In this document: positions 8,176 to 16,796 of the stretch, one piece after another
How the letters are laid out: each line of letters starts with the position of its first letter
Position numbering within the stretch: the first letter of the stretch is position 1
From: a virus
Reading direction: 5' to 3' (one strand)
DNA length: 40,965 nucleotides
UHGV virus genome: UHGV-1351066
The notes under the pieces: generated by a model
What the model was told of the DNA's origin: nothing
What the model saw: the letters and a program-made list of their open reading frames with translations, nothing else
Database searches by the model: none
Position numbers and translations under genes: made by a program

Positions 8176-8829
8176 ATGACTACTTTTACCGACAAAGAAC
8201 TGATTAAAGAAATCAGAGAGCGAATCGGCAGCCTGGACGTGCGAGACAATATTGAGCGCCTGGCTTATGAAATCGCACTGGCATCGCTGGAACGCGAACA
8301 GATTCGCCACGAGCATGCCAAATGGTCTGACTCCACATTTGGCTGCGTTGGCCCCATTGGTCCACTGAAACACCTCTCAAAAGAGGCACTGGAAGCCGCA
8401 GCCGAACCAGAAGATCTTAGCGAGTGGGCTGATATGCAGTTTCTGTTGTGGGATGCACAGCGCCGTGCTGGCATCAGCGATGCTGAAATTACCGCTGCTA
8501 TGGAAGATAAATTGAAGATCAACATGGAGCGCCAGTGGCCTGAGCCAAAAGATGGTGAGCCTCGCTTGCACATTAAAGAACCCGGCAACTCTCCGGTAAT
8601 TCCGGATGGTTGGATAAGCTGTAGTGATCGAATGCCTGAAAAGGGCCAGAACGTGCTTATTTCGGTGAATTTCGATAGCTCTCTGGTTGAACCGCTAATA
8701 TGCTCCGCACGCTATACCGGAAGCACCTTTCGGAGAGGAGATGCAACGATTAAGCCGGGTAATGGTATTGAGCAAGCAACTCACTGGATGCCGCTACCGG
8801 AACCGCCGCAGGAGGTTAACCGTGGCTAA
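8176..8829 (+). CDS. DUF550/DUF551-type two-domain protein (MazG-like N-terminus)
   Basis: Architecture and motifs resemble lambdoid early-region DUF550/DUF551 proteins; recalled, not searched. Confidence 0.45.
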   Translation: MTTFTDKELIKEIRERIGSLDVRDNIERLAYEIALASLEREQIRHEHAKWSDSTFGCVGPIGPLKHLSKEALEAAAEPEDLSEWADMQFLLWDAQRRAGISDAEITAAMEDKLKINMERQWPEPKDGEPRLHIKEPGNSPVIPDGWISCSDRMPEKGQNVLISVNFDSSLVEPLICSARYTGSTFRRGDATIKPGNGIEQATHWMPLPEPPQEVNRG

Positions 8830-9123: not shown

Positions 9124-9468
9124 ATGTCAGATTTGGCTATGAAGATTTTGAAATGGCAATCGACTGGCGATGTCGGCATCAGTAGCGCAACTCTTGCCTC
9201 AATCGCATGTGGACTGAAAAAGAATATCTATGGTCATCACTTCGGCGCTCCACATGACGCAGCCGATTTCCGACGATGCGTTGCACTTGTTGAGCAGATT
9301 CCAGAAATCAGAGATTCATTCAACAAGGTTGCAAAGCGCGTTCCGGCATTCAAAGGAATCCTCAACGAATGGGATTCACTCGTTGCTCTGTTGAAGTCTG
9401 AAATGAAGATACACGGAAACAAAGCACCAGAGACTTACAGAAGAATTAGCGAGTTACGCAAGGACTAA
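9124..9468 (+). CDS. hypothetical protein (114 aa) bracketed by terminators
   Basis: GGAGACAAG RBS; terminators on both sides. Confidence 0.45.
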   Translation: MSDLAMKILKWQSTGDVGISSATLASIACGLKKNIYGHHFGAPHDAADFRRCVALVEQIPEIRDSFNKVAKRVPAFKGILNEWDSLVALLKSEMKIHGNKAPETYRRISELRKD

Positions 9469-11397: not shown

Positions 11398-13872
11398 CTA
11401 CATTGCCATTAATATAAACATAGCCAATTCGTCATAACGAATTCCGTAGCGTCCACCTGCTTTTTTTACAAGAATCATATTTCCTGTTTTATATTGAGAA
11501 TAAATTTTCTCACCTGTATCAGGATCTGTGCTCTCTTCAGTTATCACCTCTTCATCCCATACGTCTGGCCATTCATCGTAACACCAAAAAGCATATTGCT
11601 CAGGATTTAAACCATGTTTTCTAAGAATATCTCCTACGGTTTGAGCGCCAACTCCAAAATGATACCTTGATAACTCCAATCCTTTAAAATTAATCGACTC
11701 ATTAAACCTGAACTTGCATATAATTCCCTTTATTTCCAGCGCAGCATCACGCTCTGCCTGAGTAATGTCATATATTGTTTTAAGTGTTTCATCTGATGTG
11801 CTTATAGTCCCGGATGCAGAATAAATCTGAGCCCATCTAAATGATGGTGCACCAAGAGATTTGCTGTTATCAATAATTGGTGAAAAATTACCTTTAATGG
11901 CAATATTTCCAGAGTCGCCGAATATATTAATAACTGCAGAGTCATCACCATGGTTTTTTACGCTTAAGTTTCTTGATGAAATATTTATATCTTTGTTATA
12001 TCCACTAATATTAATCCATCTTTTACCATCAATGTGATACCCGTAAATATTTCCGTTTGATTGTTCGTTAGATGACTCTCTAAGAACAATAGCATCTACT
12101 CCAGACGACCATTGTATTTTTGTATCTGTAGGCCTCCAGTTCTTTATAATGAACGAACCATCAGTAAACTCCGTTTTTATTTGTCTATTGTCTACAAATG
12201 CGTCTCTTGGTTTAAACTCACTTGTGTTAACGCTGCTCTGAAGATCAGAAGCAAAAAATCTAAGATTTCCTGTATAACCCTGAGTCTCGGTCAGGTTATA
12301 CGCAATCATAATTCCATTTTCAAACTCAGATGATGTTATTTTAACATCACGGCAATCACCAAAAATGCAATTTCCTTTATCAAATGTTGTTTGAGCTTTG
12401 AATTTATCAAACCTTAAATTACGAACAGGGAAACCATCAACCTCTAATGCAAAGGATGCAGGAAGGCCAAAGTATTCTGATGGCTTACCTGATGTATGAT
12501 CAAGAGTAGTGGCTACTGTATTCTCAAAAACAGTCCCGCTAAAATTATTACCAATTGACGGAAACCTGATTACACTTATTGTACCTTGTATTTCAGGAGA
12601 AATACCAGATAGTGTGATGTTAGTTCCATCAAATGATGCATCTGAATACGTATATACTGATTCACTGCCAGCAATTTTAAACTGTTTAACTGAAGTTATT
12701 CTCATCGACTTTTTATGTTTAAATGTCACTGAGCTTTCAGTATTACTTACAAGATCAATCTGAGGGCTATTCCTTATCGCGATTCCTGACTGGACATAAA
12801 CGTTATTAAAGTGCGTTTTTTCAGGATTTCCCTTCATTGAAAGGCTCCCGTCATTTTCTGTCAGTAGTAGTCCTTTTACCCTCCAATAGCCGACAATCTG
12901 TACGTTATCAATAACTGAATCACAGCTATCGTATACATGCAACCCTATATCCCAGTTATCACCCAATGAATAAGAATCAGGGTTATTGTATCCTTCAATA
13001 CCATTTTTACTTACCATTATTCTCAGATTGCGTAACTGTGATGCCCTGTTGATACTAACAGCTACGCTCATGGCTTTTGGTGTAGCAGGAGTAACACCTA
13101 CAGAATCTTCATTCGTAAACTCAGTGAACTTACAAGATATCCCTTCAACAATTTTAACTGGTCTTTCATTAGAGATGTTAAAAAAATATTTGTTTTTTTC
13201 TCCATCACCAGTAAATACAAGATGGGTTCCTTTACTCCAACTTTTTAATAATCTTTCAGGCGCTGGTCTATATGTGTCCCAATAATCAATGCCAGATCCA
13301 ACCAGTGAACACCCCTCAGGAATGTTAATATTCTTCTTGATGATGCATATTCCTTCAGGAATTGTTATAACCGACCTTCCAGAGTTTAAAGCTTTAATAA
13401 AAGCATCTGAATCATCTGTTACCCCATCTATTTTTGCTCCCCACCCTCTAACATCTCCACAATCTCTCCATCGTGCCATCTGCAACTCAGGATATTTTTT
13501 AGCGCCATCTGGATCTTCTAATTGCGGCCGTAGCTGATCGGGGTCATACTTCAGCACATTAGGAAAATAGAACTGCTGCGCACCATACGCATCGTATACA
13601 GCCATAGAATGGCCTTGCACAGTTACGAACTTGGCAATCTGTCCGTTATATACCGGATATCCAGCAGCGTTAATGATGATTGGCTGCGAAACAGGAACGT
13701 GAGAACCGTCTTCATTCTCCACATAAACCTGAATCTGGTTTTCAGGATTTACCGGATCCGTGTCAATTTTACCGATATAAATTTTTCCATTGGCTACGGC
13801 TTTAAAAGAACGAGCCATAGTGAAGAGTTGCGAAGGCATACTCACTACAACATTGGCTGTAATGTCTGTCAT
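11398..13872 (-). CDS. tailspike: P22 gp9-like head-binding N-terminus, divergent receptor domain, C-terminal intramolecular chaperone (peptidase S74-like)
   Basis: N-terminal ~110 aa nearly collinear with P22 tailspike ('[11 protein letters not shown]…[11 protein letters not shown]…VLKYDPDQ'); C-terminal 'TSDETLKT…' resembles self-cleaving chaperone domains. Confidence 0.8.
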
Positions 13873-13895
13873 TTAATTTGCTCCAGATACAAGGA

Positions 13896-13995
13896 ATCGC
13901 CGCAGCGTGGCTACGGTTGGTATTTGTTTGGTTTTTGAACTACGAAAATTTCGTAGTGCCATCCATCAAGGCCATCGCCGCAGCGTGGCTACGGT
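13896..13995. repeat. two perfect 22-bp direct repeats flanking a 19-bp palindrome
   Basis: ATCGCCGCAGCGTGGCTACGGT at 13896-13917 and 13974-13995; ACTACGAAAATTTCGTAGT at 13939-13957. Confidence 0.8.
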
Positions 13996-14008
13996 GAATT
14001 TTGGGCAT

Positions 14009-14031
14009 AAAAAAACCCAGCCGAAGCTGGG
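14009..14031 (-). terminator. rho-independent terminator downstream of ant
   Basis: CCCAGC-ttcg-GCTGGG then TTTTTTT on the minus strand. Confidence 0.7.
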
Positions 14032-14050
14032 TCGTTGCGTTGGTTATCTG

Positions 14051-14974
14051 TCAGTAGTTATGTACTGAAGGAGGTAATTCTTTATTCTTAAGTCTCATCC
14101 ATGCGGAAAGATTCGTTGGTCCGTCTGGCTCATTGATATCAACATCTCGTGTGTGGTTTATTAAAACGTCTCTCGCCATTCCGATAACATACGAGAATTC
14201 ATGACCGTAGTCGTAGCATCTGCCGGAATAGTTCGATTGAATTTGTTTTAATGCCGGATACAGTTCGCGGAATAATGCCTGTGAGCGGTTGGCATAATCC
14301 CATAGCCATACAAGGCTGTTTGCTTCTTTTGCAGAAAGCTCGTTGGTTTTCTTCTCTTGTTTGCCAATGAACTCACCTTCAAGCGGAACTCGAGCTGCAA
14401 GTGACAGTGCTTCGGTAAACTGCTCCTCACTGATTTCTTTGTATGAACATCCAAAATGGGATTTCAGTGACGACCACATGGTGATCATCGCCTTAGCCTG
14501 TTTTTCCTTTGGCAGAGACTGACCGCGACTCATGACGAGTTGTTTAATGGCTTCCTGCTGTTCAGTGGTGATTTTACCCGGCAACGCCTTTTTAGCTTTG
14601 CGTGGGTTAACTACATGGCCTTTAGTCCAGTACTCGTATAGCACATCGTCACACTCTTCTTGATACTGGATTACATTGTCGCGGATTTCAGGGCGGACTT
14701 TGTTAGGGCTGATGGTTTGCAACCAGCCATTCAGTTTACGTAAAGCAAGGCAAATCATGTTCTGCACACCGCCAACTGAAGGTATTGCGATTTCCACAAT
14801 ACCTTTAGCAAATCTTTGTTTTAACTTTGTAAACTGTGAAGCCCAATCCATACCCATTCCCTCAACGATAGGTTTCATTGGGGTGTACGGCTCACCGTTG
14901 TGATTGACAACATAAAGCTCTGCGCCGTGGAATGGTACATTGATAGTAGATACTGCTGTTGCTATACTTTTCAT
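14051..14974 (-). CDS. ant: antirepressor Ant
   Basis: 307 aa; N-terminus and position downstream of arc match P22 Ant. Confidence 0.75.
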   Translation of the reverse strand: MKSIATAVSTINVPFHGAELYVVNHNGEPYTPMKPIVEGMGMDWASQFTKLKQRFAKGIVEIAIPSVGGVQNMICLALRKLNGWLQTISPNKVRPEIRDNVIQYQEECDDVLYEYWTKGHVVNPRKAKKALPGKITTEQQEAIKQLVMSRGQSLPKEKQAKAMITMWSSLKSHFGCSYKEISEEQFTEALSLAARVPLEGEFIGKQEKKTNELSAKEANSLVWLWDYANRSQALFRELYPALKQIQSNYSGRCYDYGHEFSYVIGMARDVLINHTRDVDINEPDGPTNLSAWMRLKNKELPPSVHNY

Positions 14975-15037
14975 GTCGTTAATTCCTATGCGTGGTTTTA
15001 CGATACCGAAGCCCTGACTGTTACCGCAGTTGGGGCT

Positions 15038-15259
15038 TCACTGTTTTTGTAAGTCACTGTAGTTATAAAGCCACTGACCACTCATTCTTGCTTTGATTGA
15101 CTCTACTGAATCACGGCAAGGAATGATTCCACCTGACATCATTCTGATCTCCGTAAATTCACCGCTCCTTATCGACTCAATGCCATTAACGTTAACTAAA
15201 GATTTACCTCTACCAAGTGTATTCTCATAGCCAATCTCATCAACCTCAATAAACCTCAT
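15038..15259 (-). CDS. hypothetical protein inserted between arc and ant
   Basis: 73 aa; ATG overlaps the arc stop (ATGA); AGAGGGG RBS inside arc 3' end; no recognised family. Confidence 0.5.
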   Translation of the reverse strand: MRFIEVDEIGYENTLGRGKSLVNVNGIESIRSGEFTEIRMMSGGIIPCRDSVESIKARMSGQWLYNYSDLQKQ

Positions 15260-15414
15260 ACCGTTATCCCCTCTCTCTTCAGGCTGTCCAATACTCGCTT
15301 GTAAATCTCAGAGTTAACAGATCGCTCATTCTCTTTGGCTACCTTGCGCACCAAATCCAATACTTCTTTAGGCATCCGCAAATTAAACTGCGGCATTTTT
15401 CTTGCACCTTGCAT
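15256..15414 (-). CDS. arc: Arc repressor (ribbon-helix-helix)
   Basis: 52 aa 'MQGARKMPQFNLRMPKEVLDLVRKVAKENERSVNSEIYKRVLDSLKREG…' closely matches P22 Arc; not in ORF track (<60 aa). Confidence 0.8.
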   Translation of the reverse strand: MQGARKMPQFNLRMPKEVLDLVRKVAKENERSVNSEIYKRVLDSLKREGITV

Positions 15415-15501
15415 ACCCTCTCCCAATCAATGAACCACCGTGGTTCAATTGAGAATGTACTATCACCGTTATAGACTGTCAAGAAAAAACATGGTGATAA
15501 A
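15415..15501. promoter_or_regulatory. Pant/Pmnt divergent promoter region with operator-like palindromes
   Basis: GAACCAC-c-GTGGTTC (15432-15446) resembles the P22 mnt operator core; ATAGA-containing element nearby resembles the arc operator. Confidence 0.55.
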
Positions 15502-15750
15502 ATGTCCAGAGAAGACCCACAATTTAAGTTGCGCCTTCCAGCAGAGTTAAAAGCAAAGTTAGACCAAAGGGCAAAAATGAATGGTCGGTCTATCAATTCT
15601 GAACTAGTTCAGATCGTACAAAAGGCGTTATCTGAACCATCACCGATTGCAGGCTATCGAGACGAAGCTGAACGCTTGGCTGATCAGCAAGCAGAAATTG
15701 TTAAGAAGATGGTGTTTGAAACCCTGAAAAAAATGTACGAGACCAGATAG
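15502..15750 (+). CDS. mnt: Mnt repressor
   Basis: 82 aa, near-collinear with P22 Mnt ('…NGRSINSELVQIVQKALSEPSPIAGYRDEAERLADQQ…'). Confidence 0.85.
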   Translation: MSREDPQFKLRLPAELKAKLDQRAKMNGRSINSELVQIVQKALSEPSPIAGYRDEAERLADQQAEIVKKMVFETLKKMYETR

Positions 15751-15792
15751 GTCAATGTTTGTTCGTTGATATAAAATAACAAGGTATACATT

Positions 15793-16392
15793 GTGATTGA
15801 GATAGGCGTTATGGCCATCCTGAATCAAGAGCCAGGAAAAATTGAAAACGTTTTTTCTGACATATCAACATCTATCGAGCGTTCAATTTCAGACTTTGAT
15901 CGCAGTCATAGCGGCTCTTTGTCTAAAAAACAGGCTTCTGAAGCTCTTAGCAAGATCTACTGCGTTATGTCACCTGTAGAGGAAGTTTGCAAAAAGTACA
16001 TTACATTCATTGACATATTAAGTAATGGTACGGAAGAAGATATTTCCTCACTTGATATTCAACATGACGATGTAGATATGTTGAACGATCAAATATCTAA
16101 GCTTGATTATGGTATCGCGAAACTGTTGTATACCTTCTTCATCGCTGAGAACAGCGATGCGTGGAAGCCCCATATGTCAACTCTTACAACAATGAAAAAC
16201 CACTCAATAAATACTTTTATAGAATACAAAAGGCTAACTATGGGGCTTGTGACGCTAGCAATGCAGCACATACCACTATCATATGCTGAACCTGAAGAGT
16301 TCACTGAAGAAGAGTTGGCTTCATTCAAGAAATCAGTTGAAGATTCACATAAAAGATTTGGCATGGAAGCACCAAAATGGAAAACCGCATAA
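15793..16392 (+). CDS. hypothetical protein (199 aa), first gene of accessory cassette at the sieA position
   Basis: GTG start after AAGG (or ATG at 15811); no recognised domain; 3' end overlaps the next gene by 16 nt. Confidence 0.55.
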   Translation: MIEIGVMAILNQEPGKIENVFSDISTSIERSISDFDRSHSGSLSKKQASEALSKIYCVMSPVEEVCKKYITFIDILSNGTEEDISSLDIQHDDVDMLNDQISKLDYGIAKLLYTFFIAENSDAWKPHMSTLTTMKNHSINTFIEYKRLTMGLVTLAMQHIPLSYAEPEEFTEEELASFKKSVEDSHKRFGMEAPKWKTA

Positions 16393-16796
16393 GCATTGTT
16401 GTAGATGCAGCGGCTGGACCATTAGAACAATACTTTGCGAAGGCTCTTGCAAACTACAAAAACAGAGGCACCGTTTCAGCTTATCTTGGTAAGATTGGTG
16501 GGTTTGAGAGAAACCATCACGCCGTCTTATCGGGAATTTACAAGTCGCACATCAGGATCCCTGGAGTAGATGATCCTTGGTTAAAAACAACGCCAATACA
16601 TCGTAGAGTTAGCGATAACTTTTTGATATTTGCGGTACACAACACATATCCAATTCATATCCAGATCATTGCTATCATTAAACCTGATGGTCATGAGAAG
16701 GTAAAAAAACTATTGCCAGCCATCATTGATATAACTGAAAAAAGATTCCAATCTCTAAATGAGAGGGAGCTTAACTCGTTGATTTCATACAAATAA
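16377..16796 (+). CDS. YafO-like toxin homologue (putative ribosome-dependent mRNA interferase)
   Basis: C-terminal core 'HIRIPGVDDPW…FLIFAVHNTYPIHIQIIAIIKPDGHEK' resembles E. coli YafO as recalled from memory. Confidence 0.5.
   Translation: MENRISIVVDAAAGPLEQYFAKALANYKNRGTVSAYLGKIGGFERNHHAVLSGIYKSHIRIPGVDDPWLKTTPIHRRVSDNFLIFAVHNTYPIHIQIIAIIKPDGHEKVKKLLPAIIDITEKRFQSLNERELNSLISYK

Follow-up and report, generated by a model that had tools for sequence, protein, structure and literature searches.

An antirepressor gene remnant between duplicated leader elements as a probable deletion scar ahead of the tailspike gene of a CUS-3/P22-like prophage

Why should two perfect 22-bp direct repeats bracket a 19-bp palindrome immediately ahead of the tailspike gene of a prophage? 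We addressed this question in a stretch of 40,965 nt (the window), a CUS-3-like Lederbergvirus prophage. The repeat ATCGCCGCAGCGTGGCTACGGT (plus-strand coordinates) is present in exactly two copies, at 13896-13917 and 13974-13995, with no third site in the window even when up to three mismatches are allowed, and zero matches are expected by chance (100 shuffles). The palindrome ACTACGAAAATTTCGTAGT occupies 13939-13957 and consists of 9-bp arms and one central base, with none expected by chance; its centre (13948) is 2.5 bases away from the centre of the 56-bp spacer (13945.5), and the pattern CTAC-N9-GTAG has no second occurrence in the window. An earlier note on this DNA had described the two perfect repeats, the palindrome between them and their location downstream of the ant terminator and upstream of the tailspike gene. 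All three observations stand, with the whole arrangement on the minus strand.

Read in the direction of transcription (minus strand), the order is ant, the terminator t_ant, R1, X, R2, the Shine-Dalgarno sequence and the tailspike gene. The neighboring genes are mnt (15502-15750, plus strand), arc (15256-15426, minus) and, between arc and ant, a 73-aa ORF without a Pfam match (15038-15259, minus); the sar antisense RNA (14976-15042, plus; Rfam RF00262, 77.7 bits) lies just upstream of ant. The P22-type antirepressor gene ant is intact (14051-14974, minus; a 307-aa ORF with Pfam matches to P22_AR_N, 3e-44, and P22_AR_C, 6e-30) and is followed by t_ant, an intrinsic terminator detected by a terminator scan (14007-14033, minus; stem 14014-14033, then a U-run), which aligns with the annotated terminators of P22, eps34 and HK620. 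Next come the ant-proximal 22-nt leader element R1 (13974-13995, minus; ACCGTAGCCACGCTGCGGCGAT on the transcribed strand), the 56-bp insert X (13918-13973, minus) and the second leader element, R2 (13896-13917, minus), which adjoins the tailspike ribosome-binding region TCCTTGTATCTGGAGCAAATTAAATG (13870-13895, minus; GGAG at 13881-13884, ATG at 13870-13872). The latter region is invariant across an alignment of the window, P22, eps34, CUS-3 and HK620. The tailspike (11398-13872, minus; 824 aa) combines a P22 head-binding domain (Pfam Head_binding, 2e-67, residues 1-113) with a pectate-lyase-like domain, and weak C-terminal matches to an endosialidase catalytic domain and to the Peptidase_S74 chaperone domain may indicate a self-cleaving C-terminal chaperone. 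The ant moron also contains, next to mnt, two overlapping plus-strand ORFs: one of 199 aa and no assigned family (15793-16392), and one of 139 aa (16377-16796) that overlaps its end and matches a YafO-toxin domain (Pfam E 1e-11); this pair may be toxin-antitoxin or defence cargo.

The alignments of close relatives to the repeat region are split in two, and their span is exactly 78 bp shorter. In eps34, CUS-3, HK620 and Kapi1, one R (ACCGTAGCCAYGCTGCGGCGAT on the transcribed strand), the single-copy counterpart of R2, stands directly before TCCTTGTATCTGGAGCAAATTAAATG, and the 78 extra bp of the window are X and the second R. P22 (NC_002371) has 110 extra bp compared with the single-R relatives, in a homologous R'-88 bp-R version (R1' 16049-16070, insert 16071-16158, R2 16159-16180) with a degenerate first R copy (ACCGTAGCCACGCTTAGGTAAT) and a palindrome that is homologous but imperfect (CCTACAAAAAAATTGTAGG). 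We then surveyed the leaders of 125 loci, with the tailspike start as the sole anchor (ribosome-binding region pattern). The survey recovered t_ant with a single R at 67 loci, a single R behind a different upstream module at 36, R-56-R at 15, the P22-type R-88-R at 4 and no R at 3, and spacings other than R-56-R and R-88-R were not encountered among the surveyed loci. A single R without X, ahead of the same ribosome-binding region, is the state of 103 of the 125 loci. The complete R-X-R was detected in 72 of 5,426 complete E. coli genomes; the 10 full-length matches listed are all without an annotated feature at this position. The earlier note had proposed looking for the 22-mer at the tailspike boundaries of relatives: R is indeed conserved there, but it is doubled in few of them, and the perfect identity of R1 and R2 is lineage-specific, as the ant-proximal copy differs at 4-6 positions in most insert-carrying relatives.

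It had also been suggested that the repeats mark a junction at which tailspike modules are exchanged. The receptor-binding domains of 101 full-length tailspikes fall into 68 clusters, which assort freely with every leader class, with repeats or without, and the R-56-R leader is paired with at least 12 of these clusters. Thus, the repeats do not appear to be a device for exchanging tailspike modules. Leader class and tailspike type are independent, and a crossover could equally fall in the conserved head-binding domain of ~340 bp. At the same spot in Kapi1 (L004, 1640-2230), R and the ribosome-binding site lead into a P22-type tailspike gene that is cut short after ~5 codons, and this stub is followed by an HNH endonuclease gene on the opposite strand and then by a different tailspike start; this arrangement is another recombination junction.

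The origin of X emerged from a homology search in a 2.3-Gb database of phage records, in which the repeat-insert-repeat query matched the interior of protein-coding genes in other phages. X aligns with an unnamed 243-aa CDS of Klebsiella phage phiKp_30 (53 nt, 86.8%, E 8e-9) and with a 244-aa 'antirepressor' of Stx2a phages (81%); the matching P1-Ant2-like antirepressor gene is hereafter denoted Y. The homologous part, 13924-13976, corresponds to Y codons ~50-67 (reading-frame context ...DELEGEHYEIFVVQKSNK) and is 87% identical to positions 8304-8356 within Y of the P22-like locus L023 (local blastn). The palindrome, for which a 9-bp hairpin is possible, coincides with the Y codon run CAC TAC GAA ATT TTC GTA GTT, in which YEIFV is flanked by H and V (HYEIFVV). 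The P22 insert continues collinearly with Y into ...KTTSEKVVMS (93 nt, E 3e-9 at phage-database size), and both inserts match Y in one orientation, on the same strand as the tailspike gene. A Pfam search with Y returned no family. Its N-terminal domain is homologous to P1/P7 Ant2, and the source segment of X lies inside the portion of this domain that is common to P1 Ant2 (DELEGEFYTKSAK...), with protein-level homologs also in Proteus and Dryocola. Because this segment is conserved at the protein level in P1 Ant2, Y is the donor and the leader insert the derivative.

In the public phage records, X was found only inside Y genes or at the tailspike leader, and no Y gene was found in the window; a scan of genome contigs with Y recovered 11 loci only, too few for statistics. 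The insert variants mirror Y alleles, and over 41-45 nt the scars of type B share 95-97% identity with the Y_B1 allele. The coding capacity has been lost, as X comprises 56 nt without a start codon and is crossed only by short plus-strand ORFs that are artefacts. One such spurious ORF, of 39 aa (13878-13997, plus), reads LNYENFVV across the palindrome and mimics the motif of a second antirepressor family (...EELNYENFVVGK...) because the palindrome is nearly identical on both strands. Judging from these sequence comparisons, with homology, a donor, intermediates (see below) and lost coding capacity, X is a remnant of a P1-Ant2-like antirepressor gene. The possibility that X is a tandem-duplicated and diverged copy of R with the Shine-Dalgarno region was dropped, given that X matches Y coding DNA.

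The junctions of the insert were traced by comparison with L023, where R and the tailspike gene are preceded, at a distance of ~1.1 kb, by an intact Y in the same orientation (Bro-N ant, Y, orf73, terminator, mnt on the opposite strand, ...AACAAATACCA, R, tailspike). Another P22-like locus, L186, has the order Y, orf73, t_ant-like terminator, AAAATTC, R, tailspike. Apart from the match within Y, window positions 13870-13928 are 98% identical to L023 9455-9513 (blastn), and the R2 flank AACAAATACCA is identical in the two. The two alignments overlap on exactly AACAA, which is found in L023 at 8352-8356 within Y and again at 9455-9459, and which in the window (13924-13928, minus) joins Y codon ~67 to the R2 flank. 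Deletion of L023 8357-9459 (1103 bp) at this 5-nt AACAA reproduces the X-R2 junction of the window. Thus, this junction can be explained as the product of a 1103-bp deletion at microhomology. The 3' junction of P22 differs, with Y ...GTTATGTCA joined to CAAAAAATTC-R, the flank usual after t_ant, so that the two insert lengths would reflect different deletion end points. The 5' junction is common to P22 and the window: R1 ends in ...GAT (13974-13976, minus), where Y reads ...AAGGAT followed by GAACTTGAAGG. CACGC, 9 nt upstream, is a second short match between R1 and Y, and the 5' crossover is ambiguous between CACGC and GAT.

A chimeric query, in which t_ant-R1-X was continued into Y, was employed to search for intermediates. 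In E. coli FDAARGOS_1288 (L340), ant and t_ant are followed by R1' fused to a 5'-truncated Y, which lacks the first ~49 codons, runs to its normal stop and is followed by orf73; PGAP annotates this gene as 'incomplete... missing N-terminus'. The R1' of L340 differs from the degenerate R1 of P22 at 2 of 22 positions and has the same Y fusion point, and the IMG/VR locus L380 contains the same junction of R1' with truncated Y. E. coli WS4437A-1 (L341) carries ant and then an intact Y. The search recovered no single genome that combines ant, t_ant, R1', truncated Y, ..., R2 and a P22-type tailspike. The hypothetical ancestor is represented by its halves only, the left half in L340 and L380 and the right half in L023 and L186. 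In a separate observation, the Y-orf73 module was also seen to terminate in the t_ant hairpin sequence CCCAGCTTCGGCTGGG (L186 9020-9060, L340 3500-3530, L341 3445-3475), whether the phage has a P22-type tailspike or unrelated tail genes; on this evidence, the terminator itself appears to be a shared module boundary.

The perfect identity of the repeats calls for an explanation of its own. R1 and R2 are the same in the window, with CCACGC in each, and in L035, with CCATGC in each; L314, which has a near-identical insert, contains a degenerate R1. Degenerate versions are found in most carriers (ACCGCAGCAACTAAGCGGCGAT, ACCGTAGCTACTCAGCGGCTAT and the P22 version; P22, L340, L040, L107 and L314). 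Thus, the perfect repeat points to recent copy correction and not to a conserved design.

Taken together, we consider it probable that R1 and X constitute a dispensable recombination/deletion scar in the tailspike leader of a CUS-3/P22-like prophage. R normally occurs once, with the ant terminator on one side and the tailspike ribosome-binding site on the other. In the order of events that we infer, the 3' part of R would have been joined, in an ancestor, to Y at codon ~46-50 by illegitimate recombination via CACGC...GAT, in a Y gene that lay upstream of another R copy and a tailspike gene. Most of Y and its downstream genes would have been deleted later, with ~1.1 kb lost at the AACAA microhomology in the lineage of the window, leaving as a residue 56 bp of Y between two R copies, including the fortuitously palindromic HYEIFVV codons. 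Subsequently, in the same lineage, the ant-proximal R would have been brought to full identity with R2, with short-patch gene conversion as the most likely mechanism. Late transcripts reading through t_ant would traverse the scar, with R2 and the Shine-Dalgarno sequence serving as the functional leader. The recombination junction proposed in the earlier note is retained in this modified form, as a likely scar next to an R element that lies in an annotated boundary spacer, but the process behind it would be antirepressor turnover and not the exchange of tailspike modules, which assort freely.

R itself is probably a small sense-strand RNA hairpin in the tailspike leader. R2 is predicted to fold into CCGUAG-CCACG-CUGCGG (stem 13911-13916 with 13900-13905, minus, that is, the sense strand), and the hairpin form across leaders is CCGUAG-CCAYG-CUGCGG. 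Over 72 distinct leaders, 96% of the cells of the stem CCGUAG/CUGCGG are paired on the sense strand versus 78% on the antisense strand. Most variants of the stem are wobble-compatible on the sense strand only (A to G opposite U, C to U opposite G), and two sequences among these 72 leaders show a double change from C-G to U-A. Boundary sequences at the module junctions of lambdoid phages have reportedly been described for HK620, in work of Clark and colleagues from 2001. R with the ribosome-binding region is likewise short and conserved at a module junction: it precedes the tailspike gene behind at least four upstream modules (P22-type ant, a variant ant, the Y module and the mnt module), stands ahead of 68 tailspike receptor-domain types and lies in the spacer labelled 'bsq1; boundary sequence' in the CUS-3 GenBank record CP000711. 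As a short sequence conserved at a junction with differing flanking modules, R resembles, on this comparison, a boundary sequence. R differs from boundary sequences in that it also behaves like a sense-strand RNA hairpin, so that its conservation may reflect a leader function and not only recombination. The boundary element would be the single R, and its duplication a side effect of recombination. The 12-mer GGCGATTCCTTG, which comprises the end of R and the next leader bases, also occurs in L304 (~2560-2580), L305 and L306; in these lambdoid contigs, a ribbon-helix-helix-like gene on the opposite strand (...KKAKESSEG and stop) has hairpins at its 3' end, and the 12-mer comes after them. The similarity with L304-L306 could not be extended into real homology.

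The palindrome has a history within Y. Intact Y genes were sampled via peptide patterns on the C-terminal side of the hairpin, and in this sample of P1-Ant2-like genes (hairpin alleles from L353-L432, L339, L342, L343, L006 and L007) the palindrome is always present, with a stem of 7-10 bp at codons ~54-60. Besides the HYEIFVV allele given above, the alleles read CAC TAC ACA AAA AGT GTA GTG (HYTKSVV), ACC TAC ACA AAA AGT GTA GGT (TYTKSVG), TTT TAC ACT AAA AGT GTA AAA (FYTKSVK), TTT TAC AAG ATT TTT GTA AAA (FYKIFVK) and, in the P1 type, TTT TAC ACA AAA AGT GCA AAA (FYTKSAK), where 7 of 10 positions are Watson-Crick paired. The stem codons covary as reverse complements, on the outside (CAC/GTG, ACC/GGT, TTT/AAA) as well as on the inside (GAA/TTC versus ACA/AGT), and this covariation alters the encoded amino acids. 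Furthermore, the synonymous codons used in each allele yield a near-maximal palindrome (P 0.0007-0.03 under uniform synonymous choice). These patterns suggest either selection on the Y hairpin at the nucleic-acid level or quasi-palindrome template switching that keeps correcting it.

In the leader scars, the palindrome was intact in all 19 cases of the unbiased survey, its stem never shorter than 7 bp and its flanks differing, and all seven differences between X of the window and the allele-A Y fall outside the palindrome (roughly p = 0.03). Since the palindrome is maintained at the nucleic-acid level in intact Y, a function retained in the leader is possible. It nevertheless seems doubtful to us that the palindrome is a conserved nucleic-acid hairpin of the Y genes of many enterobacterial phages and that scars persist because the hairpin works there; if so, the leader hairpin would act either on the tailspike mRNA, as an RNA structure, or at the DNA level, as a hot spot that drives the rapid turnover of the ant moron. 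Independent compensatory evolution of the hairpin within scars was considered and rejected, as the scar variants, including the flanking bases, copy existing Y alleles, which suggests ongoing patch conversion from intact Y genes. Related hairpins also occur on their own. In L015 (~2290-2320), one lies alone just upstream of t_ant, and hairpin-only stubs (for example, CCTGCAC-GAAAA-GTGTAGG) are found in intergenic DNA of L015, L133, L310, L318, L338 and L305, frequently with an intrinsic terminator or a pseudogene from a related antirepressor family as a neighbor. The stubs in L133, L310, L318, L338 and L305 come from hairpin-anchored scans, which are ascertainment-biased, and were excluded as evidence of selection. 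A search of the searchable papers for hairpins or remnants in antirepressor genes, or for boundary sequences, returned nothing specific.

Could the X hairpin and the two R hairpins be kept because they shape the leader of the tailspike mRNA, tuning tailspike yield through stabilization, through processing or through an effect on read-through after t_ant? The leader fold is strong (-57 kcal/mol, z = -3.9, a stability reached by 0 of 200 shuffles), every surveyed scar has an intact hairpin, in four sequence versions, both 3' deletion end points (P22 type and window type) keep it, Y genes show a constraint on this hairpin at the level of the nucleic acid, and R2 behaves like a sense-strand RNA hairpin. 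However, such a stable fold is the automatic result of duplicating a self-complementary unit, because the two R copies can pair together, and any Y stub of at least ~50 nt from the shared 5' junction must include the hairpin. X is missing from 103 of the 125 relatives with the same ribosome-binding region, and the scar hairpins are copies of Y alleles, flanks included, not independent compensatory events. Moreover, no intrinsic terminator besides t_ant was detected, the X and R hairpins having no U-tract on either strand, and an Rfam 15 search of 13300-16000 at E <= 1 recovered the sar RNA only, with no match at the repeats. We regard a functional RNA structure of this kind as unlikely.

The earlier note had also raised a protein-binding regulatory site, and the 9-bp arms of the palindrome, which are perfect, together with repeats placed symmetrically on both sides, would suit an operator at which a dimeric phage or host regulator of the tailspike gene binds the palindrome, possibly along with the repeats. 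This proposal finds no support: the palindrome is inherited from the Y coding sequence, a promoter scan of 13700-14200 revealed no promoter-like site nearby or overlapping it, and the element is missing from most relatives (103 of 125 related loci have no insert). The palindrome, whose CTAC-N9-GTAG pattern is single in the window, is also unlike the Mnt-type operator-like site GAACCACGGTGGTTC in the mnt-arc spacer upstream of arc, the site with which it was compared as a candidate immI operator (Arc/Mnt site), and the covariation of the outer and inner stem in Y alleles fits base pairing rather than a fixed recognition sequence. An operator is accordingly very improbable in our view. It is scarcely more than conceivable that X is a miniature mobile element, that is, a transposable or palindromic unit whose insertion in the leader duplicated a 22-bp target. 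The direct repeats around the palindromic unit superficially resemble a target-site duplication, but the duplication measures 22-31 bp, and most carriers have a degenerate copy on the ant side. X also aligns collinearly with coding sequence from inside Y, and the same junction occurs in an intermediate that retains a larger part of the truncated gene. Unlike a MITE with a target-site duplication, X has neither terminal inverted repeats nor dispersed copies, being single in the window and placed only in Y or the leader by public phage records.

An antisense RNA could likewise be imagined, as a plus-strand transcript against the tailspike 5' end that is structured by the hairpins. The P22-like prophage BTP1 provides a precedent with STnc6030, an antisense RNA of >700 nt across the tailspike 5' end that confers immunity (PMC7067206), and the plus strand folds as well (-60.4 kcal/mol, z = -2.5). 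However, BTP1 has no sequence similarity here (PMC7067206), the scan yielded no plus-strand promoter, and R pairs better on the minus-strand transcript, as detailed above. This reading strikes us as highly improbable, and we return to the deletion scar as the preferred explanation.

The scar fits what has been published on the ant moron. This region 5' of the tailspike gene undergoes frequent insertions and deletions and occurs as 10 types among 16 genomes (Villafane et al. 2008, PMC2629481), and HK620 and Scho1 contain degraded or truncated remnants of ant or arc in it (PMC2629481). The window is in line with this high insertion-deletion flux and with the degraded antirepressor genes (PMC2629481), and its scar is a well-resolved new example of a known event, a gene remnant in the ant moron. 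It differs from the published remnants in that it derives from a second, P1-Ant2-like family with the P22-type ant left intact, and in that it comprises only 56 bp bracketed by a duplicated leader element. The 88-bp remnant in the ant-gene 9 spacer of P22 is not described in the ε34 genome paper (PMC2629481) or in the literature searched. Compared with Ant1/Ant2 of P1/P7 and the homologs in Stx and P22-like phages, X is a piece of the region encoding the N-terminal domain, but it keeps codons ~50-67 only, with no start, no ORF and no functional protein. The junctions of the window share 3-5 nt (GAT/CACGC and AACAA), as in illegitimate recombination at microhomology, and the R copies, which are identical within a genome and polymorphic between genomes, resemble those shaped by gene conversion between short repeats; both mechanisms are deduced from the sequences.

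To conclude, an unannotated repeat-palindrome-repeat in ~1% of complete E. coli genomes can be explained as the probable fossil of a second type of antirepressor, and the model phage P22 carries an older, degenerate version of the same fossil between ant and gene 9. Symmetric repeats with palindromes should thus not automatically be taken for regulatory sites. Two elements are singled out by this analysis, namely, the leader hairpin R at the ribosome-binding site and the codon-covarying hairpin in antirepressor genes. For the turnover of the ant moron, which was earlier described only at the gene level, this locus provides base-level junctions, microhomologies and living intermediates.
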